Numbered from the stretch's first letter, positions 28,306-44,560 are shown. The stretch: 61,843 bases of DNA from a virus (IMGVR_UViG_3300042360_000496:1-61843), one strand, 5' to 3'. Program-made: numbers and translations. Notes: generated from the letters alone by a model not told the origin.

Positions 28306-29736
28306 ATGAAATTCAAAACACAACCCTATAAACATCAGTTAGAAGAATTCGAAAACAAAAAGGACACACTTGCATATGCATTGTTCTGGGAGCAAGGAAC
28401 TGGAAAGACTAAAGAGATATTGGATCAAGTTCAATATCTTGCAGAAAAAGGAGAGATAGACTCTCTTCTCATAGTCGCACCAAACATGATCCATATAAAC
28501 TGGATCAAGGAGGAGATTCCAACCCACTTGGGCTTAGAGAACTATGTAACTCACTATTATGAGTCTTCAAAAGCTGCCAATAAATCACACATAGCTGCTT
28601 GTGAAGCATTATTGAAGACAAAAGATTTTGCGATATTAGCAATCTCCTATGATGCTTTTATCACAGTTAAGGGAAAAGATTTTGCCAAGAAGTTTCTCAC
28701 AAAAAAGAAATGCATGTACATACTTGATGAGTCGACAAGAATAAAGACTCCTGGAAGTAAGCGTACAAAGACGATAGTTGCTTCTGGTAGATATGCAAAA
28801 TACAAAAGAATCCTCACTGGGACGCCTGTAACCCAAGGTCCATTTGATGTTTATGCACCAATAAAATTTCTTGATGAGACTTTTTGGAAGAGAAATGGAT
28901 TAGCCTCTTACAGTTGCTTTAAAAATTACTTTGGATTGTTCGAGCAGAAGATAAACAGAGGAACAAACAGGTCTTACGAATTATTGTTAGGATATCAAAG
29001 ACTCGACGAGATGAATGAAATCTTGAAGCCCATAACGAGCAGAGTGGTGAAGAGTGAAGTTCTAGATCTACCAGAGAAGACCTACACCAAGAGATTCTTT
29101 GAAATGACCAAAGAACAAATTGCGATGTACAAAGCTATGAGAGACGAGTTCATTGTTTTCATTGGGCAAAACGATGTAATAGAAGCTCCACTGGCTCTGA
29201 CAAGAATTCTAAAACTTCACCAAATAACTTGTGGTTACATTCCCGATGAGAATAACACTTTTCATCAAATCTCAGAAATAAACCAAAGATTAGAAGCTTT
29301 CAAAGAGGTTATCGAAGACATAACAACTCCAACAATTATTTGGTGCAGGTTTAAAAAGGACATAGAACTTATTCAATCTGTGATTGGTGACAGGATGGTT
29401 AGATTTGATGGGTCTGTTGATAACGATCAAAGACAAGAAAATCTAAAATTATTTAAGTCTGGAGAAAAACAATTCTTTGTCTCCACAACGGAAGTTGGAG
29501 GGACAGGGTTGACTCTAAATGAAGCAAAGACAGTTATATACTACACAAATAATTACAAGCTAGAGAACAGGCTCCAATCGGAGGATAGGTGCCACAGAGT
29601 TGGACAGAATGATACTGTTCTCTACATTGATATAATTGCACAAAATACAATTGATGAGCACATAGTTAAAGCTCTCAGAAAAAAGTTAGATATTTCCAGG
29701 ATCATTACTGGAGATGAAGTGAAGGAGTGGTTATGA
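28306..29736 (+). CDS. SNF2-family helicase
   Basis: EQGTGKT, DES, LTGTP, QSEDRCHRVGQ. Confidence 0.93.
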   Translation: MKFKTQPYKHQLEEFENKKDTLAYALFWEQGTGKTKEILDQVQYLAEKGEIDSLLIVAPNMIHINWIKEEIPTHLGLENYVTHYYESSKAANKSHIAACEALLKTKDFAILAISYDAFITVKGKDFAKKFLTKKKCMYILDESTRIKTPGSKRTKTIVASGRYAKYKRILTGTPVTQGPFDVYAPIKFLDETFWKRNGLASYSCFKNYFGLFEQKINRGTNRSYELLLGYQRLDEMNEILKPITSRVVKSEVLDLPEKTYTKRFFEMTKEQIAMYKAMRDEFIVFIGQNDVIEAPLALTRILKLHQITCGYIPDENNTFHQISEINQRLEAFKEVIEDITTPTIIWCRFKKDIELIQSVIGDRMVRFDGSVDNDQRQENLKLFKSGEKQFFVSTTEVGGTGLTLNEAKTVIYYTNNYKLENRLQSEDRCHRVGQNDTVLYIDIIAQNTIDEHIVKALRKKLDISRIITGDEVKEWL

Positions 29737-30107
29737 CAGTTTATATAGTTTCCGATCACAAAGTTCTAGACTTTGAAACAAATAGTTATGTTTCAAAATA
29801 TGACTACACACCAGCAGAAAAGTTTGGAGAATTAGAATTTCTTCTCTCTCCAACAGCTAATCCATTTAAAAATATGGATGTGATAATCCAAGAGCTTCAT
29901 TCAAAGCTCCAAAACTCGACAATGGATGATTATCTTATTTTAGCTGGGAACCCTGTTCTAATGTCTACAGCAGCTGCGATAATGGCTTCCTATAATGAAG
30001 GATGGGTCAACCTTCTGCAGTGGAATGGATATAAAAAAGAATACAATCCACTAACTTTTCAAATAAATTCATCAAAACGTTGGGAAATACCTATTTTAAA
30101 AAAGTAA
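29733..30107 (+). CDS. Conserved hypothetical phage protein
   Basis: A.KFGEL..L, DYL...GNP, LLQW motifs; AGGAG RBS. Confidence 0.7.
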   Translation: MTVYIVSDHKVLDFETNSYVSKYDYTPAEKFGELEFLLSPTANPFKNMDVIIQELHSKLQNSTMDDYLILAGNPVLMSTAAAIMASYNEGWVNLLQWNGYKKEYNPLTFQINSSKRWEIPILKK

Positions 30108-30145
30108 ACAAGTTTATAATTTATGAGTTAAATCAAAAAGAAGAA

Positions 30146-30700
30146 ATGGAGACAAATAATATTAACGACGAAGAAAAATATTTAGAATTCACTGACTTGT
30201 CAGAAGACGGCATGTCTAGACTCTCTAAACTTACTTCAGAACAACTTTCTTTACAAATTAAGCTAGAAAAGCTAGAGAAAGAAGCAGCTGAAGTCAAAGA
30301 AAAGTTGAGAAATATTTCAGAAACATTGATCCCAGATCTCATGGAATCTTTGAATATGGAAAGTTTCACAACTTCTGCTGGTCTATGTGTTGAAGTTAAA
30401 CAAAAGATTCGTACTTCAATAACAGAAACTAATAGACAAGAAGCAATTAAATGGCTCGTAAACAATGGATTTGCAGCATCTGTAAAAAATGAAGTTAAAG
30501 TTTCATTTTCCAAAGATGAATATGACAAAGCACAAAATCTTGCAGCTGATTTAAGAGACAAGAATTTTCCTGCTCTTGAGAATCAAACTGTTCATCCACA
30601 GACTCTTCAATCAATTGTAACAAATTGTCTCAAAGATGGGGTTAATATCCCACTTGAGTTGTTTTCAGTGTTCAGACAACGTTCAACAAAAATATCCTAA
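30146..30700 (+). CDS. Conserved replication-module protein
   Basis: IPDLM, A..WL..NG, VHPQTL motifs; precedes SSB. Confidence 0.7.
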   Translation: METNNINDEEKYLEFTDLSEDGMSRLSKLTSEQLSLQIKLEKLEKEAAEVKEKLRNISETLIPDLMESLNMESFTTSAGLCVEVKQKIRTSITETNRQEAIKWLVNNGFAASVKNEVKVSFSKDEYDKAQNLAADLRDKNFPALENQTVHPQTLQSIVTNCLKDGVNIPLELFSVFRQRSTKIS

Positions 30701-30722
30701 CATAATAGACTTTAAACAAAAA

Positions 30723-31547
30723 ATGGCAAAAGATAAAACATCAGTTCCCGAAACATCTACAACAGAAGCTGTTGTAGAAACAGGCCCAAAAGAAATAGCA
30801 GTAATGAATTATGGAGACTACGCAAATGCTGGTTTCGACAATCAATCAAAGGATGATGTAAGTCTTCCTTTTCTTGGAATACTTCAAACAACGAGTCCTC
30901 AACTTGATTTGTTACCAAATGCTAAACCTGGACAAATCGTAAACACCGTCACACAAGATCTATATGACGGCAAAACTGGTATCAAATTTGTCCCAGGAAC
31001 AACTCAACATCTTTATGTTGAATGGGTTCCAAGAACTGCTGGAGGTGGTTTTGTAGGAACTCACAAACCAGATAGTGACGTTGTTACCAAAGCCCAAGAG
31101 AAAGCAACCGCTTGGAACGAACTAAAGAATGGAAATAATGACCTTATCGAAACATTTTACATCTTTGGTGTAATGCTGGATGACGAGGACACACCCTTGG
31201 GCATGGCAGTTCTTTCATTCTCCTCAACCAAAATAAAGGTCTACAAGAGAATCAATACAAAGCTTAGAACTTTCCAACTTCCATTAGCAAATGGTAGAAA
31301 AGTTGTTCCACCTCTCTTTGCCCATAGGTTGAAGATTTCAACTGTCAAAGAAAAATCAACCAAAGGAGATTTCTACAACTTTAGTATTGAACCAGCAAAT
31401 GGTGATATAAAGGAATCTCTCCTCCCAGTAGATCATCCTGCATTTTTAGCTGCTAAGACTTGTGGTGAATTAGTTGCTAAGGGTGCTGTTAAAGCTGATG
31501 AAGGTACTAATCCCACCAACAAACCTGATGGAGAAGTTCCATTCTAA
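30723..31547 (+). CDS. Putative single-stranded DNA-binding/annealing protein
   Basis: LP.L..LQ..SPQ, YVEW.PR..GGG; acidic C-terminus ending EVPF. Confidence 0.65.
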   Translation: MAKDKTSVPETSTTEAVVETGPKEIAVMNYGDYANAGFDNQSKDDVSLPFLGILQTTSPQLDLLPNAKPGQIVNTVTQDLYDGKTGIKFVPGTTQHLYVEWVPRTAGGGFVGTHKPDSDVVTKAQEKATAWNELKNGNNDLIETFYIFGVMLDDEDTPLGMAVLSFSSTKIKVYKRINTKLRTFQLPLANGRKVVPPLFAHRLKISTVKEKSTKGDFYNFSIEPANGDIKESLLPVDHPAFLAAKTCGELVAKGAVKADEGTNPTNKPDGEVPF

Positions 31548-36870: not shown

Positions 36871-37024
36871 ATTTTTCTACATTTCTTTTTTATAGATAGT
36901 ACATGCCCTAAGACGATAAGTTAAAACTTTAAGTTCCTTAATTAAATTTAATAAAAAGACCAAGCCTTTTTCTCGAGAAAGAGAATAAAATTTTATTTGA
37001 ATCTAAGTAGAAATGGAGAAAAAG

Positions 37025-37369
37025 ATGAAACCATTGATGCTTCTTACCCAGAAGTACAACCGTCTCTGCAGGTTTTTCAACAAAAATTATATGCCTTCTT
37101 TTATCAAAGAAGAGCATGCAATTAAAAAGATTTTAGAACTGCAGGAATTAGTATCAGATCAACCACATATACAAGATCTATTTTTGTTAATTGTTGAGGG
37201 TGCTACAATGCCGATGCTGGTTGAACACTGGTTGAAAGTTAAACCAGAGGACAAAGATATCAAAGAAGAGAGTGTCAGAAAAAAGATAAATAATATCTTG
37301 GCTGACATTGCTTCGCGATTAAATCTAAGAATCGAAACTGGTATAATAATTCTAGAGGTAAAAGCATGA
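37025..37369 (+). CDS. Hypothetical protein leading the modification operon
   Basis: GAAATGGAGAA RBS; track start 37013 lies within the RBS. Confidence 0.65.
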   Translation: MKPLMLLTQKYNRLCRFFNKNYMPSFIKEEHAIKKILELQELVSDQPHIQDLFLLIVEGATMPMLVEHWLKVKPEDKDIKEESVRKKINNILADIASRLNLRIETGIIILEVKA

Positions 37370-38304
37370 CAGAATCAGTAACAGAAGCTACAAAACAACC
37401 TAGAAAAGTCAGAGAACCAAGACTTGATTTAGGACAAAAAATTAAAATGGATTTGTCTGGCTTTTGGAAATACTCTATAGATAGAGAAACCATAAGAATC
37501 AAAAAAGATGTCCTTAAACTACCAAAACCATTGACAGAGGATGAAGTATTTCTAAAAAATAAATTCTGTAATATTTTTAGAGAACATGACAGAACAACTA
37601 AATGGTTTAGAGAAAATATCAGAGATCCTTTAAAAGATAGTCCTGGAGTCTTATTCGCAACTGTTGCGTTTAGATGGTTTAACAGATGGCAGACTGGAGA
37701 GATTATCCAAGATCTACTTCTTGAACCACCAACAAGTTGGGAAACCTTTGAAACTACTATAAGATCAAGATTGATAGGTGTTAAACCAATTATCACTGGT
37801 TCTTATATGATCAAGACTCCGACTGGGCTTAACAAATCGGACGGTGTAATATCCAATATAAAAAACTTTTGGGGTGTAACAACTGAACCAAAGAGTCTAA
37901 AAGATATGCATACTTTCATAAAAGGGAAACCATTTATGGGCTCTTTTATGGCTTATGAAGTAGTTACAGATCTCCGTCATACATATCTCTGTAGAGAAGC
38001 AGAAGATATTAATACTTGGGCAGCAGCAGGCCCAGGAGCAGCTAGAGGATTAGCAAGAATTATTGGTAAACCTCTAGATTATTTTTCTCACTACTCACAT
38101 TTAGACCAAATAACAATGTGCTCATTGATGGAACAAATCTTACAGGATTCCATAACAAGCTGGCCAACAGAATGGTCTGATTGGGAAATGAGAGACGTGG
38201 AACACACTTTATGTGAATATGACAAATATTTAAGATGCCAATCTGGTCAAGGAAAAACAAAACAAAAATATGAGGGAGGGGTTTGTGAAGAAAATAATAG
38301 TTGA
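37366..38304 (+). CDS. 5-hydroxymethyluracil DNA kinase (aGPT-Pplase1/5-HMUDK family)
   Basis: KFCN.FRE.DRTT, FR.FN, G.F.AYEVV.DL, GPGA.RGL, R.VEH.LCE.DKY.R. Confidence 0.85.
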   Translation: MTESVTEATKQPRKVREPRLDLGQKIKMDLSGFWKYSIDRETIRIKKDVLKLPKPLTEDEVFLKNKFCNIFREHDRTTKWFRENIRDPLKDSPGVLFATVAFRWFNRWQTGEIIQDLLLEPPTSWETFETTIRSRLIGVKPIITGSYMIKTPTGLNKSDGVISNIKNFWGVTTEPKSLKDMHTFIKGKPFMGSFMAYEVVTDLRHTYLCREAEDINTWAAAGPGAARGLARIIGKPLDYFSHYSHLDQITMCSLMEQILQDSITSWPTEWSDWEMRDVEHTLCEYDKYLRCQSGQGKTKQKYEGGVCEENNS

Positions 38305-39283
38305 CTTGGATGACACAATTTGTTCAACCTTCAACAGAGATTTTGAAAATTCTGTTCCCAATCTAAGGTTAATAAATAAAATAAACAACCTTTTTTATCA
38401 AGACTGGGAAATAGTTATTCTAACAGCAAGAGGAAACTTATCCTGTAAAAATTTGGAAGAAAGGGAACAGAAATACAGAAAACAAATCGAAGTTTGGTTA
38501 AAGAAAAATGGTGTAAAATACACAAGACTATCTTTCGAGAAAGAGCTTGCTGTACACTACATTGACGATAAGTCTATTAGACCAGATGAATTTTGTGAGT
38601 TAGAAATTGAAAATTTAATTGGTTGGTCTGGTGCAACTATAGAAAAACATGGAGAAAAGGTTCTAAAAACTCACGAGAAGATACATTCCGAAGTTTCTTG
38701 GTACCAATTAGCAAAGAATTTTGATTTTAATGTTCCAAAAATATCTTCTGTTGTTGGAAAAACTCTAGAGATGGAGTATATCCATGGAAAAACTGGAGAT
38801 GTTTCTTCTAAAGAGTTGTTCGAAATTTGTGAAAAGTTTAAACTTATAAAACATTCTTCTCCAGACTTCGAAACATACTTGGAATATATCTCCAAACACT
38901 GTACACTAGATGTATTCACAGAGTTTGTTGAAAAATTGAAAAAGGATAGCCACACTTTTTTTAATTCCCAAAAGTCTTTTTGTCATGGTGATCTTTCGCT
39001 GGAAAACATAATAAAGTCAGAGATAAATTATAAGTTGTATCTTATTGACCCAATATATCTTCCAGCTGTCTATTCGTCTTGGCTTCTTGACATAAGTAAG
39101 AGTCTTTATTCATTAAAATTTCTTGGACAAGCAGAAAAATATGAAGAACTATTGGAACTTTCACCAAACAAATTGGATGTTTTAAAACTTGAGGCTACCC
39201 ACTGGATGAGAGTTTATAAGTATGCACCAACAGAAACAAAGCCCAGAATTTTGGAGGAGTTTAGACAATGTTTGACCAAATAG
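38285..39283 (+). CDS. HAD phosphatase fused to APH/choline-kinase-fold kinase
   Basis: N-terminal DLDDT, TARG, YIDDK; C-terminal HGDL..EN and LIDP; GTG start with GGAGG (track start 38270). Confidence 0.85.
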   Translation: MKKIIVDLDDTICSTFNRDFENSVPNLRLINKINNLFYQDWEIVILTARGNLSCKNLEEREQKYRKQIEVWLKKNGVKYTRLSFEKELAVHYIDDKSIRPDEFCELEIENLIGWSGATIEKHGEKVLKTHEKIHSEVSWYQLAKNFDFNVPKISSVVGKTLEMEYIHGKTGDVSSKELFEICEKFKLIKHSSPDFETYLEYISKHCTLDVFTEFVEKLKKDSHTFFNSQKSFCHGDLSLENIIKSEINYKLYLIDPIYLPAVYSSWLLDISKSLYSLKFLGQAEKYEELLELSPNKLDVLKLEATHWMRVYKYAPTETKPRILEEFRQCLTK

Positions 39284-39705
39284 AAAAGGCAAAAACTAAA
39301 GGTCTGAAAATTGGATTTACAGCTTCAACTTTTGATCTTCTTCATCCTGGACATATAGCTATGTTGGCAGAAGCAAAAGCCAATTGTCAATTCTTGGTTG
39401 TTGGATTGCTTACAGATCCAACTATCAGTCGTCCAGAAAAGGAAAAGCCTGTCCAAACTATGCTTGAAAGATATATACAAATTCAAGCTGTTAGATTTGT
39501 TGACATGGTTGTTCCATTCGAGACAGAAGAGGAATTGGAACAATTACTTCTGACAATAATGCCAGACATCCGATTTATAGGTGAAGAATATAAAAACACA
39601 AACCACACTGGCAGAGAAATAGAAGGAATAACAAATTATTACAATAAAAGAAAACACAAATTTAGTTCTACCGATTTAAGAGACAGACTGAGGAAAACAA
39701 AATGA
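39268..39705 (+). CDS. HxGH nucleotidyltransferase (TagD/RfaE-II cytidylyltransferase superfamily)
   Basis: STFDLLHPGH, ER...L/I.A...VD.V, R.H.FSST.LR. Confidence 0.9.
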   Translation: MFDQIEKAKTKGLKIGFTASTFDLLHPGHIAMLAEAKANCQFLVVGLLTDPTISRPEKEKPVQTMLERYIQIQAVRFVDMVVPFETEEELEQLLLTIMPDIRFIGEEYKNTNHTGREIEGITNYYNKRKHKFSSTDLRDRLRKTK

Positions 39706-41126
39706 AAACTTGCAAAAAAGACAAAATGAAAATTGCTTATGTATGTCACAAAGGAGACACATATGGTGGATTTGTTTCTCACACAGAGCATGCAATCCAT
39801 GGCTTGAAAAAAAGAGGGCACGATGTAGACTTCTTTTTTCTCTCCTATTCTGGTCCAAATGAAATGTTTGTTAGAAAAAAGATTGATACTCTTCACAAGG
39901 AAGGTGTAACAATAGAAGGTAAACATTTCAGAACGTTGGACAGAGGTATAGGGACAGGGTTGTATAATCATATACAACTTGGTTGGATCACACCAGTGAC
40001 TCCTTATAAAACTCTTCAGCAGAAGAAAATTCTAAAGGAAAAGCTTGAAACTTATGATGTTGTGATCTGGCATACACCATTTTGGTTTAAACAGAAACCA
40101 GTACTTTGCGACACAGATTGGCCAATGCTTCTTGATTTACAAAATCCTGTTAATGTTGCTTTTCATCATGATGCCAATATTAGAGACAATTCAGCTTGGA
40201 TGTTTTTTATCGACAAATATTTTGATAGATTAATAAATGTCCATCAAGCCAGCTACAACAGCTCAAGCGTCTTCGAAACACCAAGAACTTTGATTTTCAA
40301 TCCACAAATCATAAATAAGGTCGAAAAAGATTTTAATGGTGACAAAAAAGTTAAATTCTTTTCTCTCCAATACTGGAAAGGATCTAAACATGTTGACGAC
40401 TTGATTCGTGCAATTCCACATCTAAAGGAAGATATCTTGATAAGAGTTGCAGGAAATGGTCTAGATTATAGATATCTAAAATCGATTGATAAATGCCCAG
40501 AGGATTTTATTGGCAGCCCCAAAAGGGATCCTGATATTCTTGAGTCTAATATAGGTAGACCCATCTTCAATCTTGCCTTGGAAACAGGAAAATTAGAGGA
40601 CTTGAATTGGGTGACTGAACAAGAGAGGAATTCGATATTTGAAGATACAGATTTTTTTGTAGACACTGCGTGGTACAAAGTAAGTACCGAACTTGGAGAA
40701 CATTTCAGCAGAACTTTGGTGGAAGCTATGATACGTGGAATCGTTCCAATAGCTAGGAATCTTGGGCTTAGCAACAATCTGGAAGGGAATGGAGAAGTGT
40801 TTAAAGCTGGAGAAAACTATATTATGATTCCATATGATGCTACTCCAAAAGAATTTGCTGAAATACTTGATGGTGCTTCAAAAATTAGCTCGGGAGAATA
40901 CAAGAGAATACAAAATAATAATTTTGAACTTTTGAAACATTTTGACTTGGACTATGTTGTAGAACAATATGAGAAGGTCTTTAAAGGGGAGCCTTGTGGC
41001 TTCTATGGAAAATACGAAACTGGTGGTACAGAAATTCCAGATAAATTTTTGCAAAAAGCAGAAAAACAATGGTTTGGAACAGGTGATCACAGAACATTTA
41101 AATTTAAAAAGGAGAAAAATGACTAA
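39702..41126 (+). CDS. GT-B glycosyltransferase (GT4-like), candidate DNA glycosyltransferase
   Basis: MKIA..., GG...H.E....GL..RGHDV, K....LIRA, EHFSR..VEAM..G..P. Confidence 0.8.
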   Translation: MKTCKKDKMKIAYVCHKGDTYGGFVSHTEHAIHGLKKRGHDVDFFFLSYSGPNEMFVRKKIDTLHKEGVTIEGKHFRTLDRGIGTGLYNHIQLGWITPVTPYKTLQQKKILKEKLETYDVVIWHTPFWFKQKPVLCDTDWPMLLDLQNPVNVAFHHDANIRDNSAWMFFIDKYFDRLINVHQASYNSSSVFETPRTLIFNPQIINKVEKDFNGDKKVKFFSLQYWKGSKHVDDLIRAIPHLKEDILIRVAGNGLDYRYLKSIDKCPEDFIGSPKRDPDILESNIGRPIFNLALETGKLEDLNWVTEQERNSIFEDTDFFVDTAWYKVSTELGEHFSRTLVEAMIRGIVPIARNLGLSNNLEGNGEVFKAGENYIMIPYDATPKEFAEILDGASKISSGEYKRIQNNNFELLKHFDLDYVVEQYEKVFKGEPCGFYGKYETGGTEIPDKFLQKAEKQWFGTGDHRTFKFKKEKND

Positions 41127-41643
41127 ACCAACAATTACACAGATTCTAAAGCTTCTAGACAAACCAGCACTTGTCAAGTGGGCAAATAAGCTTGGGCTTG
41201 AAGGAACCTCTCTAGACTCTTTCTACGAAAAGAAAAGAGAAGAAGGAATATCTCTCCATGCCCAAATAGAACGATATGTGAAGAGTGGTGTTAGAATGAA
41301 GGATCCAGCTCATCAAGAAAGGATTGAGAAATTCTTTCAGACGAGAAGAGTGGTTGCTACCGAAAGAGAAATAGAGACGGAATGGTTCACTGGAAGAACT
41401 GACGTTGTATTTTACCAAGATGATGATCAATATGTTGGGGACTTCAAGTCTTCAGATGGGCTTTACTTTGAAAATAAGCTACAACTAGCTGCATATCAGC
41501 TTGCTTATCCTCAAGCAAAGATCTGCGTCATACATATACCACTGTTCGTTGTAGACACTATAAAGGAGGATCTAAGACCTTATCAGGACATTGTTAAGTT
41601 GCTTTCTAAAGTCTGGCAAATAAAGGAGGGGATAATTAAATGA
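41119..41643 (+). CDS. PD-(D/E)xK nuclease-like protein
   Basis: T.IL..LDKPAL..WA, G...H, GR.D, DFK, Q..AY. Confidence 0.7.
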   Translation: MTKPTITQILKLLDKPALVKWANKLGLEGTSLDSFYEKKREEGISLHAQIERYVKSGVRMKDPAHQERIEKFFQTRRVVATEREIETEWFTGRTDVVFYQDDDQYVGDFKSSDGLYFENKLQLAAYQLAYPQAKICVIHIPLFVVDTIKEDLRPYQDIVKLLSKVWQIKEGIIK

Positions 41644-41933
41644 AACTTGAAAGTCTAGCAAAGGCAAATCTACTTAGCAGCAAATTACAGATAGCTGAAG
41701 AAGAATTAAAAAATCTTGAAAAATTCTTAAAAACCTATGAACCATTAGCACCTGAAGAAAAGGAAAATGTCCGGATGAAACTCTTCCAATCTACGTCAGG
41801 AAAAGACGTGATGCTGCTGGCCTTCAGTCTTAGATTAGAAGACCCAGAGATAGTTCTTCAGTTATTACAAATTATTAAATCAAGAAAAGAATCACAAATA
41901 GCACAGTTTAAATTGGAGATTGAAAGTCTATGA
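41640..41933 (+). CDS. Hypothetical protein
   Basis: Coupled ORF. Confidence 0.6.
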   Translation: MKLESLAKANLLSSKLQIAEEELKNLEKFLKTYEPLAPEEKENVRMKLFQSTSGKDVMLLAFSLRLEDPEIVLQLLQIIKSRKESQIAQFKLEIESL

Positions 41934-42949
41934 AAGTTATAAAAGTTAGAAACGTCAATGACGCATTCATTATGGGTCTGAACTACCTCCAGAGAGAAGG
42001 TGTAGAAAGAGATTCAAGAAATGGAAAAGTTCTGGTTGCACCAGAACCTGTTTGCACAGTCTATCTACAGCCCAAAGAGAGGGTATTATTTAACATTGTT
42101 AGAGATGCTAATCCATTTTTCCACCTCTATGAAAGTATATGGATGCTAGCTGGTAGACGTGATGTACAAAGTTTAACAAACTTTGTTGCAAGAATGGAAG
42201 AGTTTTCAGATGATGGGACAACCTTTCATGCTGCCTATGGTTACAGATGGAGGAATCAATTTAAAATACAGGACAACTCTCTAGCAGATTTTGTAGATGA
42301 TACTTCTTTAGATACAAGTGATCAAATTTCTAAAATTATTGATATTCTAAAGAACAATAAAGATGATCGTAGAGCTGTCCTGCAGATATGGGATGCTCAT
42401 CTGGATCTTGGAAAACAATCAAAAGATATTCCCTGCAATTTAACTGTCCACTTTCAAGTTACAGCAGAAAATAAACTTGACATGACTGTCTTTAATCGAT
42501 CAAATGATATTATCTGGGGATGTTATGGAGCCAATGCTGTCCATTTCAGCTTTCTGCAAGAGTATGTAGCATATAAAACTTCTTACGAAATTGGCAGATA
42601 TTATCAGATCTCTGACAACTATCATGCCTATCTTAAGACTCTAGAGAAGGTTAAAGACGAAAAAACAATTTCAGATCCTTATTCTGGACCATCTGCTCCA
42701 AGAGTAGTTGGTGTTGATTTTTCAACTGATGAATGTTTAAAGTTCATCAGAGAGGTGAGACCAGAAAGTATGTATTCAAACTTCAATTTCAATTCTGTGT
42801 TTCTTAGAGAAGTAGCTCTTCCAATGACACTCAGCTATTATCACTATAAAAAAGGAGACAAAAGATTGGCTCAAGACACTCTTTTGAAGATGATAGCTGG
42901 TGTTGACTGGAAAATAGCTGCTCTAGAATGGTTAGGGAGGAGAAAATAA
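41930..42949 (+). CDS. Thymidylate synthase homologue, probable dUMP hydroxymethylase
   Basis: RDANPFFHL.E, catalytic DIPCN, RSND..WG..GAN (Asn indicates dUMP specificity), H.Y; co-occurs with a 5-hmU DNA kinase. Confidence 0.8.
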   Translation: MKVIKVRNVNDAFIMGLNYLQREGVERDSRNGKVLVAPEPVCTVYLQPKERVLFNIVRDANPFFHLYESIWMLAGRRDVQSLTNFVARMEEFSDDGTTFHAAYGYRWRNQFKIQDNSLADFVDDTSLDTSDQISKIIDILKNNKDDRRAVLQIWDAHLDLGKQSKDIPCNLTVHFQVTAENKLDMTVFNRSNDIIWGCYGANAVHFSFLQEYVAYKTSYEIGRYYQISDNYHAYLKTLEKVKDEKTISDPYSGPSAPRVVGVDFSTDECLKFIREVRPESMYSNFNFNSVFLREVALPMTLSYYHYKKGDKRLAQDTLLKMIAGVDWKIAALEWLGRRK

Positions 42950-42992: not shown

Positions 42993-43032
42993 TCTTATAG
43001 GTGACTAAAACCTATAAGAAATGGAGAATAAA

Positions 43033-43581
43033 ATGCAAACAGCACAATTAGTAGATCTAGAGCAGTTTAGAGGAAATATTTCTCTGAATGTTACTCAAAT
43101 GAACAGTCAAGTTCGTCACATGAAGAACAGAGAAATGGATTGGGAGGTGTTTCTACCAACCAAAGGAAAGAATTTACAAAGAGGGTTTGTTTGGACTGTT
43201 GGTCAAAAAAGAGAACTGATAGAATCAATTCTTCTTGGGAGGCAGATTCCAAACTTCTATTTCATAAATTCTTTTGACACTGTAAAAAACAAAGACATAT
43301 TGATCGTCATAGACGGAAAACAAAGGCTCTCAACAATCTTTGACTTTTTGGACGATAAATTCACAATGTCATTTACAGGTTGGTTGGATGATTATGAATT
43401 TCTCTTCTCCGAGCTTCCACTAGAATATCAAAGAGCAATAACTGGTTTTTGGCTGAACTATCACATTGTCAATGAAGACATGGATAAGAGAATAACAGAT
43501 AAAGAAAAGATACAATGGTTCAAGTTTATAAATTTCGCAGGTACACAACAAGATAAAACACATATGGAGGAATTAAATTGA
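43033..43581 (+). CDS. DUF262 (ParB/Srx-like) domain protein
   Basis: QR..VW, LIESIL.G..IP, IDGKQRL. Confidence 0.85.
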   Translation: MQTAQLVDLEQFRGNISLNVTQMNSQVRHMKNREMDWEVFLPTKGKNLQRGFVWTVGQKRELIESILLGRQIPNFYFINSFDTVKNKDILIVIDGKQRLSTIFDFLDDKFTMSFTGWLDDYEFLFSELPLEYQRAITGFWLNYHIVNEDMDKRITDKEKIQWFKFINFAGTQQDKTHMEELN

Positions 43582-44027
43582 TTAAACAATTACTAATAAT
43601 CTCACTAATTACATCAAGTTGTTTTGGTGCAGATTTAAAAATGAATGTAGAGACCGATGAATTTACAAATGTGATAAATAAGCACTGTAGATACATAGAA
43701 GTTGACCCAAGAAGGCAATGGACTATGTATGAGATATTAAAATTTACAAAAACAAACTTCTCTTGGGGAGAATCAAACAAGTATCCAGAAAGACAAAACA
43801 CAGAAGATAGAAAGTTGAATCTTCTGTGCGAAGAAACTGGTTACAAATCTGAATTAAAAGAGATAAACTTTAAAAGCAGAGCCTCTAGTAGACACTTTGA
43901 AGAGTCAACATTTGAACTTACAAAAAAGGATCAAGAAGAAATTACAAAATGTCTAAATCTAAAAATTAGATATGGTTATGTTGTTAGAGAATTAGGAAAC
44001 ACAAAGTGCTTGGAGGAATTAAATTGA
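43578..44027 (+). CDS. Secreted hypothetical protein
   Basis: Signal-peptide-like N-terminus; flanked by 17-bp direct repeats. Confidence 0.6.
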   Translation: MIKQLLIISLITSSCFGADLKMNVETDEFTNVINKHCRYIEVDPRRQWTMYEILKFTKTNFSWGESNKYPERQNTEDRKLNLLCEETGYKSELKEINFKSRASSRHFEESTFELTKKDQEEITKCLNLKIRYGYVVRELGNTKCLEELN

Positions 44028-44560
44028 CAACAAATTACCAAATAAAAAGAACAAGAGAAGCAGCTGACGTTAAAAGGTTTCACACCTTTCCATCCATTAA
44101 AGAGCAAACTGTTGGACAGCATTCATTCAATATGTTAACTATGCTGTTCCAATTTGTCAAGGAACCGAGTTTAAATCTGATAAAGGCTATAACTTATCAT
44201 GACTTTGCAGAAAGATGGGTTGGAGACATTCCAGCAACTGCTAAGTGGGGAAATGAAGAGTGGGGAAATCTAACAGAGTCCATTGAAGAATCTGTTAGAT
44301 TAAAACTCGGATTCATTTCTGGTGAATTGACCGAAGATGAAAAGAACATTCTAAGTTTTCTAGACACCTTAGAGCTGTTCTATTGGGCTTTGGAAGAAGC
44401 CGAATTAGGAAACAAAAATGGGTACTTCCTTGCCAAGAAAGTAAACAAGATTGTCTTAGAAAAATATGCAAAAACTAGGTTACAAACTACCATGAGCAGC
44501 TTATTATTTAGAATAGATTTACAACACCAAAGAACAGAAGATGGAGATGCATTCAATTGA
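44024..44560 (+). CDS. HD-domain 5'-deoxynucleotidase-like protein (YfbR family)
   Basis: V.RFH, TV..HS, HD.AE...GDIP, D.LE. Confidence 0.8.
   Translation: MTTNYQIKRTREAADVKRFHTFPSIKEQTVGQHSFNMLTMLFQFVKEPSLNLIKAITYHDFAERWVGDIPATAKWGNEEWGNLTESIEESVRLKLGFISGELTEDEKNILSFLDTLELFYWALEEAELGNKNGYFLAKKVNKIVLEKYAKTRLQTTMSSLLFRIDLQHQRTEDGDAFN

Follow-up and report, generated by a model that had tools for sequence, protein, structure and literature searches.

Two overlapping plus-strand genes of the viral record IMGVR_UViG_3300042360_000496 probably form the module that supplies the sugar donor for glycosylation of the phage's DNA, a proposal in which we have good though not complete confidence and which draws on their sequences and on analogy with published systems. 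The first gene codes for a HAD phosphatase fused to a kinase of the APH/choline-kinase fold, and the second for a nucleotidyltransferase with an HxGH motif. The record, hereafter the window, was analyzed over its full length of 61,843 bases and carries a completeness rating of 99%. The proposal builds on four findings: the domains can be identified, their catalytic motifs are intact, the two genes are obligately paired, and they are associated in genomes with genes for DNA modification. An initial annotation had read the pair as packing the three activities of nucleoside diphosphate (NDP)-sugar activation into two genes, with an APH/choline-kinase fold in place of ribokinase and no isomerase, and with a host sugar phosphate, as against UDP-glucose, as the starting point. 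This three-step interpretation has already been published for other phages and is not new; the distinguishing features here are a uracil-type context and a link of the glycosyltransferase (GT) to a protein of the aGPT-Pplase-like family. The components of the module are as follows:

38270..38617, plus strand: HAD phosphatase domain of the fusion, residues 1-116 (TIGR01689, phrog_1238)
38618..39283, plus strand: APH/choline-kinase-fold kinase domain of the fusion, residues 117-337 (PF01633, Foldseek)
39268..39705, plus strand: HxGH (HPGH) nucleotidyltransferase, 145 amino acids (aa) (PF01467, rfaE_dom_II, phrog_7878)

The open reading frame (ORF) of the fusion (38270-39283, plus strand, 337 aa) has 16 nt in common with that of the transferase (39268-39705). 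Its residues 6-116 match the capsule biosynthesis phosphatase model TIGR01689 (E 1e-14; 54.5 bits, below the cut-off of 162 bits) and phrog_1238 (E 1.4e-18), the PHROG label of which, 'phosphoheptose isomerase', is unfitting for a HAD fold. Residues ~117-337 match the choline/ethanolamine kinase family PF01633 weakly (E 4.7e-5; 23.3 bits, below the cut-off of 29). An AlphaFold model of the fusion, computed with 33 homologues, has a pLDDT (predicted local distance difference test) of 93.1, and a Foldseek search with it recovered ethanolamine kinase, choline kinase, fructosamine-3-kinase, APH(2''), methylthioribose kinase and maltokinase, each at probability 1.00; the fold neighbors of the kinase are small-molecule kinases throughout. 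In the alignment of the 33 homologues, D12, D14, K91, D99 and D100 of the HAD domain and G118, S120, K133, H239-G240-D241, N246 and D260 of the kinase are invariant; going by the known HAD and APH motifs, we take these to be the catalytic positions. In sum, the ORF joins a HAD phosphatase to a kinase of the APH/choline-kinase fold. The motif AGGGAGG stands directly after its annotated ATG at 38270 (window positions 38270-38290). An alternative start, the GTG at 38285, lies five bases 3' of this Shine-Dalgarno-like motif and, because of that position, may be the true start of the fusion, with the shorter form probably being translated.

The transferase ORF has a GGAGGA nine bases 5' of its ATG. 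Its product matches PF01467 (CTP_transf_like; E 2.9e-11, over the cut-off) and phrog_7878 (E 5.2e-37), and the HxGH motif can be read in its sequence as H26-P-G-H29. We compared it with RfaE-II and TagD through curated hidden Markov model (HMM) scores: the best such model is rfaE_dom_II (TIGR02199; 82.4 bits, under the cut-off of 181.5 bits), and TagD (TIGR01518) scores 50.1 bits (under its cut-off of 165.4 bits). Among solved structures, ethanolamine-phosphate cytidylyltransferase (E 4.7e-16) is nearest to it in sequence and TagD comes second. A homologue search returned 734 proteins, at least 120 of them of the phage family and bearing automatic names only; the name that the source gives to this family is glycerol-3-phosphate cytidylyltransferase. 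Domains, folds and motifs therefore agree with the three activities and the APH/choline-kinase fold (PF01633 and the Foldseek matches) that the initial annotation had claimed. Likewise, the absence of an isomerase is borne out, with no match to SIS or SIS_2 at E<=1 in the whole record.

The fusion has relatives in 71 clusters of the protein collection. Among 185,579 prokaryotic species, both of its domains are spanned in only 6 of 44 matching loci, all six being contigs of metagenome-assembled genomes; for this reason, the HAD–kinase fusion is essentially viral. Stand-alone cellular homologues of the HAD domain (from Salinicola, Acinetobacter, Pedobacter and Cytophaga) lie in polysaccharide loci, and in the loci examined neither a kinase nor a transferase was found near them, so that they offer no clue to the sugar. 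At four such bacterial loci (L091, L094, L098 and L103) the HAD homologue is flanked by a conserved pair of proteins of ~520 aa and ~240 aa, for which there was no Pfam match.

Published precedents and related viral loci

A published cassette of the same architecture comes from contig 53, a metagenomic sequence (Pyle, Lund, O'Toole, Saleh; bioRxiv 10.1101/2023.12.21.572611; listed as Cell Rep 2024 in the references of PMC13229309). The cassette encodes a cytidylyltransferase, a GT-B DNA glycosyltransferase and a bifunctional enzyme with HAD-like and APH-like parts; each of these is essential in E. coli for the formation of mono-heptosyl (449 u) and di-heptosyl (641 u) 5-hydroxymethylcytosine (5hmC), and the GT is reported to be similar to the T4 beta-GT. 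Shared with the window are the bifunctional HAD/APH protein, the adjacent cytidylyltransferase-like enzyme and the GT-B, with BshA and MshA as structural neighbors of the GT. The acceptor of contig 53, as described there, is 5hmC, which a methyltransferase and a TET-like dioxygenase generate once the DNA has been replicated. The window is without both of these enzymes and has instead an aGPT-Pplase-like protein and a thymidylate-synthase homologue of the dUMP type. A published donor module is placed here in a thymidine-type setting, in contrast to the cytosine-type setting of the published case.

The second precedent is the Afh pathway of phage HY126, as laid out in PMC13326640 (citing He et al. 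2026). There, the kinase domain of AfhE turns arabinofuranose 5-phosphate (Araf-5-P) into Araf-1,5-bisphosphate, the HAD enzyme AfhF removes the 5-phosphate, and the N-terminal domain of AfhE then makes UDP-Araf. The AfhE/AfhF systems (T4-like HY126, RB69, DLP3 and LC53) and the window have in common the order of kinase, phosphatase and transferase, here only proposed, acting on a terminal-phosphate sugar. Their product feeds GT4-like DNA glycosyltransferases, and the GT of the window is also GT4-like; the HAD proteins are homologous and the kinases match weakly. In the Afh phages, as described, one polypeptide combines the kinase with a MurU/GlmU-like transferase and the HAD protein stands alone, whereas in the window it is HAD and kinase that share a polypeptide and the separate transferase is of the unrelated HxGH fold. 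The Afh phages are further described as encoding an arabinose-5-phosphate isomerase and a 5-hydroxy-dCMP synthase with the D169N signature, neither of which is encoded by the window phage.

Among cellular pathways, ADP-heptose synthesis (the HldE kinase domain, GmhB, and domain II of HldE/RfaE) comprises the same three chemical steps, and rfaE_dom_II is the best model of the window's transferase. However, its kinase has the ribokinase fold, as opposed to the APH fold seen here; the best match of the window's HAD domain is TIGR01689, with no GmhB-named model listed at E<=0.01; GmhA is absent; and the transferase falls under the RfaE-II cut-off. The MupP/AmgK/MurU pathway for recycling of N-acetylmuramic acid likewise yields an NDP-sugar through a HAD phosphatase, an anomeric sugar kinase of the APH fold and a nucleotidyltransferase, the phosphatase acting first, on the 6-phosphate, and the transferase being of the MurU type.

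From each half of the fusion alignment we built a local HMM, and both were searched against ~1,150 proteins. The HAD-half HMM recovered the AfhF-like protein of LC53 (E 1.3e-24) and gp10 of Synechococcus phage S-CBWM1 (2.8e-22); the kinase-half HMM recovered gp12 of S-CBWM1 (E 4.7e-30) and the C-terminal domain (residues 218-430) of the AfhE-like protein of LC53 (2.4e-7, 26.5 bits). The best unrelated protein scored 7.8e-4 in these searches, and the next 0.15. From annotation, synteny and the published list of arabinose phages we infer that the HAD protein of LC53 is the AfhF orthologue. In S-CBWM1 the three activities are present as separate genes beside a TET-associated glycosyltransferase (TAGT), the kinase matching that of the window at E 1e-16. 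Agathobaculum phage AB434P2 has, in order, the fusion, the HxGH transferase, a 328-aa ORF and an annotated deoxyuridylate hydroxymethyltransferase. Further, fusions link the three activities pairwise: HAD to kinase in the window, transferase to kinase in the AfhE-like protein of LC53, and transferase to HAD in P0068, a 249-aa protein with an N-terminal HxGH transferase, of which the HAD part has 58% and the transferase 31% identity to the window's. The activation route put forward in the initial annotation, in which a host sugar phosphate takes the place of UDP-glucose, matches those of contig 53 and of the AfhE/AfhF systems; the homology evident in the LC53 HMM matches and the published precedent support that mechanism, which is already known.

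In IMG/VR we confirmed 284 relatives of the fusion and examined the best 80 loci, counting base-modification genes and candidate glycosyltransferases within 6 kb; neighboring ORFs were clustered, and one representative of each of 36 clusters was scanned. The HxGH transferase adjoins the fusion in 78 of the 80 loci, and in the two exceptions (L011 and L029) the sequence stops at the fusion or no more than 150 nt past it; the pairing is obligate. At least one base-modification gene (thymidylate-synthase homologue, C5-cytosine methylase, TET/JBP dioxygenase or dCMP deaminase) was found in 53 of the 80. Recurrent neighbors are the C5-cytosine methylase (34 loci), thymidylate-synthase homologues (31), dCMP deaminase (18), the TET/JBP dioxygenase (10) and TAGT (10), and the window-type GT-B is present in 11. 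An NDP-sugar epimerase/dehydratase lies just 3' of the transferase in eight loci; its best NCBIfam model is GalE (148 bits, with 99.9 bits for heptose 6-epimerase), both scores being under their cut-offs and not diagnostic of the sugar. The commonest neighbor of all, in 46 loci, is a 414-aa family, c2 (e.g., L067:1967-3211 and L006:7453-8808), for which there was no Pfam or NCBIfam match; with a faint GT-B-like motif in its C-terminal region only, it may be an undescribed DNA glycosyltransferase. A profile search of the PDB with c2 gave a fucosyltransferase at E 0.055 only. Thus, the module presents itself as a portable two-gene unit, paired across these loci with several acceptor-generating systems and GT families. 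In four loci (L031, L034, L049 and L051) genes for GIY-YIG homing endonucleases lie between the fusion and the transferase genes, and in 12 others (e.g., L083:3405-4331) an ORF of 305-316 aa occupies that place.

The acceptor base, the glycosyltransferase and its associate

The neighbors of the module that bear on the acceptor and on the transfer of the sugar are the following:

37366..38304, plus strand: aGPT-Pplase-like helical protein (Pfam HMUDK_hel), homologue of PaMx11 gp50 (PF18723, phrog_2396)
39702..41126, plus strand: GT-B (GT4-like) glycosyltransferase, a putative DNA glycosyltransferase (PF00534, Foldseek)
41930..42949, plus strand: thymidylate-synthase homologue, dUMP type (PF00303, E 1.4e-24)
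44006..44560, plus strand: HD-domain phosphohydrolase, homologue of PaMx11 gp52 (PF12917, E 1.8e-7; 43.4% identity to gp52)

The window shares with the thymidine-hypermodification cluster of PaMx11/M6 a synteny of a Dda-like helicase, ribonucleotide reductase, a gp50-like protein, a dUMP-type thymidylate-synthase homologue, an HD protein and DNA polymerase. PaMx11 has in addition a cassette, gp46-49, that codes for an amino-acid:DNA transferase, a flavin lyase, an acetyltransferase and a P-loop kinase acting on 5-hydroxymethyl-dU (5-hmdU) in DNA, as given in Lee et al. 2021 (PMC8989533). This cassette is absent from the window (no match reaching E 0.05; the best match to gp46 at E 0.41), and the sugar module and the GT stand in its place.

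The diagnostic positions of thymidylate synthases, as set out in PMC13326640, are Cys146 and residue 177, where Asn goes with uracil and Asp with cytosine; D169N marks the 5-hydroxy-dCMP synthases. Aligned to solved thymidylate synthases, the homologue in the window, which has 46.3% identity to PaMx11 gp51, keeps Cys146, Asp169 and Asn177 (E. coli numbering); the site equivalent to that of the D169N signature holds Asp (RSND). It is probably a dUMP hydroxymethylase. We aligned 26 distinct homologues from the related loci at the position of Asn177. All seven of those from loci with a window-type GT-B or an aGPT-like protein have Asn177. Asp177 was found in 18, none of them from such loci and 15 of them from loci with family c2, usually with a C5-methylase as well. 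One further homologue, that of L040, has Asn177 within a ThyA-like PF-N motif. Neither a C5-cytosine methylase (PF00145) nor a TET/JBP dioxygenase (PF12851) had a match at E<=1 anywhere in the genome, and a tblastn search of the window with PaMx11 gp49 gave no match at E<1. Judged from these sequences, the sugar-donor module serves both cytosine-type and uracil-type systems, and the window is of the uracil type.

The GT (39702-41126) matches PF00534 at E 5.8e-8. Foldseek searches with its predicted model (pLDDT 81.7) recovered BshA, MshA and PimA, and the DNA-bound T4 alpha-glucosyltransferase (1y6f) at rank 32 (E 4.7e-11); the T4 beta-GT was not among the matches listed. The aGPT-Pplase-like protein (312 aa; PF18723 HMUDK_hel, E 7.4e-40) has 43.6% identity to PaMx11 gp50, and its homologue in Stenotrophomonas phage Sonora is annotated as alpha-glutamyl/putrescinyl thymine pyrophosphorylase. 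In the window the two proteins are encoded by separate genes that flank the sugar module, whereas at L010:7438-9951 they are joined in a single 837-aa ORF, with the window-type GT-B at residues 3-471 and the aGPT-Pplase-like/HMUDK_hel domain C-terminal to it at 542-801. Because of this fusion, we suggest that the GT and the aGPT-like protein cooperate on DNA. The aGPT-like gene is present in eight of the 80 loci, and seven of these (L008, L010, L027, L055, L057, L058 and L061) are among the eight loci with a GT closest to that of the window (E <=1e-138); it is absent from the three loci with more distant GTs (L038, L081 and L084). A predicted complex of the GT and the aGPT-like protein scored 0.00 in both runs, which speaks neither for nor against binding. 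The homologous gp55 of M6 is, according to PMC8989533, dispensable for the reaction reported there.

Taken together, the PaMx11-like cluster, Asn177, the absence of a methylase, a TET enzyme and a 5-hmdU kinase, and the presence of an aGPT-like protein that is fused to the GT in one relative make 5-hmdU the likely acceptor and glycosylated 5-hmdU the likely product. The literature searched, PMC13229309 included, gave no natural phage DNA with glycosylated 5-hmdU, which does not of itself show that such DNA is unpublished. If the acceptor is indeed 5-hmdU, the phage DNA would contain a novel thymidine derivative bearing a sugar; this matters for how phages withstand restriction, CRISPR and type IV systems, and for tools that label 5hmU enzymatically. 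Going a step further, we advance as a tentative idea, which we favor somewhat less than its negation, that this lineage replaces thymidine with glycosylated 5-hmdU, in a viral counterpart of trypanosome base J, using a phage-activated heptose or other unusual sugar, with the aGPT-like protein as the DNA-handling partner of the GT. Were this true, this 'pyrophosphorylase' family would have a role that does not need a phosphorylated base; the GT/aGPT-Pplase-like fusion offers a testable lead to the role of what is a widespread family.

The proposed pathway and its alternatives

What the order of reactions is, and which sugar, nucleotide and acceptor take part, we infer; the steps are modelled throughout on the homologous arabinose pathway. 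Briefly, we envisage the following. The APH-fold kinase would phosphorylate the anomeric hydroxyl of a host sugar carrying a terminal phosphate; the fused HAD domain would then take the terminal phosphate off the resulting bisphosphate; the HxGH enzyme would join the sugar-1-phosphate and an NTP to give the NDP-sugar; and the adjacent GT-B would move the sugar onto a hydroxymethyl pyrimidine of the phage DNA. The 5-hmdU would have been made before replication by the dUMP-type thymidylate-synthase homologue, with a base-J-like glycosylated replacement of thymidine as the outcome. By analogy, the most likely substrate is D-glycero-D-manno-heptose-7-phosphate, with arabinose-5-phosphate or ribose-5-phosphate as the next option; precedent speaks for a heptose, the homology of the HAD and kinase parts for a pentose. 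The donors suggested in the initial annotation fare accordingly: heptose-7-phosphate and pentose-5-phosphate are substrates of the published precedents, and its polyol option found no support.

Several points weigh against this proposal. The transferase lies under the curated cut-offs of both RfaE-II and TagD, and its sequence does not tell which sugar or which nucleotide it uses. The likeness to contig 53 is one of architecture, and the heptose there was, according to the report (bioRxiv 10.1101/2023.12.21.572611), assigned by mass, in E. coli, and on 5hmC as opposed to 5-hmdU. The match of the window's kinase to the AfhE-like domain is weak (26.5 bits with the HMM; pairwise BLAST E 0.093). 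In 13 of the 80 loci no candidate glycosyltransferase was found within 6 kb, and family c2 is unproven as a glycosyltransferase, an hhalign comparison with the GT family of the window giving a probability of 1.8% (E 0.028) over the C-terminal region only.

The same three-step chemistry might alternatively draw a pentofuranose, arabinose or ribose, from host arabinose-5-phosphate or ribose-5-phosphate and lead to a pentosylated base. The biochemistry of the Afh pathway is published (PMC13326640), the HAD half of the fusion is clearly homologous to the phosphatase of the arabinose phages (the LC53 match above, and 37-39% identity to homologues of T4-like phages), its kinase half weakly matches the AfhE-like kinase domain, and the fold matches include methylthioribose kinase, which acts on the anomeric position of a pentose. 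We nevertheless consider a pentose rather unlikely: the arabinose phages carry their own arabinose-5-phosphate isomerase, which the window genome is without; they use a MurU/GlmU-like transferase, as against an HxGH enzyme whose best model is a heptose-1-phosphate adenylyltransferase domain; and the only published test of an HAD/APH, cytidylyltransferase and GT-B set gave heptose. A route of the Kennedy type, in which the kinase acts on ethanolamine, choline or glycerol, the HxGH enzyme makes a CDP-alcohol and the product goes to DNA or a surface polymer, is very improbable, even though ethanolamine and choline kinases are the top fold matches of the kinase, the top solved relatives of the transferase are ethanolamine-phosphate cytidylyltransferase and TagD, and its automatic names read glycerol-3-phosphate cytidylyltransferase. 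A phosphatase would be useless in such a route, but the kinase is joined to a HAD domain whose catalytic residues are invariant. The TagD score is far under its cut-off (50.1 against 165.4 bits), the neighboring transferase is of the GT4 type, a GalE-like epimerase lies 3' of the HxGH gene in eight of the 80 loci, and the published cassette of the same architecture added heptose.

It is comparably hard to see the APH-fold kinase as a non-orthologous substitute for the P-loop 5-hmdU DNA kinase, after which the aGPT-like protein would replace the phosphate. The synteny with PaMx11 would fit, in that homologues of gp50, gp51 and gp52 are kept and the P-loop kinase gp49 is lacking, as would the location of the kinase gene directly 3' of the gp50 homologue. 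However, the fusion–transferase pair also occurs in cytosine-type contexts (C5-methylase, TET/JBP or Asp177 type) without an aGPT-like gene, the window has no homologue of the gp46 amino-acid:DNA transferase, the fold neighbors of the kinase all act on small molecules, and both the HAD domain and the transferase would be left unexplained; we hence give this reading very little credence. The last alternative, that of an auxiliary set altering the surface polysaccharide or lipopolysaccharide of the host, e.g., for superinfection exclusion, and not the phage DNA, could appeal to the naming of the HAD subfamily for capsule biosynthesis, to the stand-alone cellular homologues in polysaccharide loci and to the resemblance of the transferase to a lipopolysaccharide heptose enzyme. 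This too is highly unlikely, with the genes lying inside a replication and nucleotide-metabolism operon and overlapping their neighbors, DNA base-modification genes within 6 kb in 53 of the 80 loci, a GT fused to a DNA-modification-associated domain at L010, and a published cassette that modified DNA.

The wider gene string and genome

The sugar-module genes, proposed above to supply the donor for DNA glycosylation, sit within an operon of replication and nucleotide-metabolism genes and overlap their neighbors; the plus-strand genes at 37013-42949 show mutual overlaps of 4 to 35 nt. The remaining features of this region are:

37013..37369, plus strand: 118-aa ORF, first of the overlapping string, with no Pfam or PHROG match and a 4-nt overlap with the next ORF
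40969..41643, plus strand: Cas4/PD-(D/E)xK-like exonuclease (phrog_298 exonuclease, E 4.6e-10; Cas4 matches weak)
43021..43581, plus strand: GmrSD_N (DUF262, ParB-like) protein, 186 aa (PF03235, E 1.2e-15)

The real start of the exonuclease ORF is probably an ATG near 41119, and a 97-aa ORF lies between this Cas4-like nuclease and the thymidylate-synthase homologue. Directly 3' of the latter is the gene for the GmrSD_N protein (43021-43581), in a genome without a dioxygenase; ParB-like proteins are reported in PMC13229309 as partners of some phage T-dioxygenases.

Searched at the DNA level, the region gave zero matches among 50,697 phage records, and only the protein-level searches were informative. 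The record has siphovirus structural genes and a large block for replication and nucleotide metabolism. Its major capsid protein has 68% identity to the Roseobacter phage RDJL3 protein and 66% to its counterparts in Pseudomonas phages NP1 and PaMx25, which makes a Gram-negative proteobacterium the likely host. Finally, three consecutive ORFs at 29727-31547 match the Pfam families Pam3 gp32, gp33 and gp34, and are thus like those of cyanophage Pam3.

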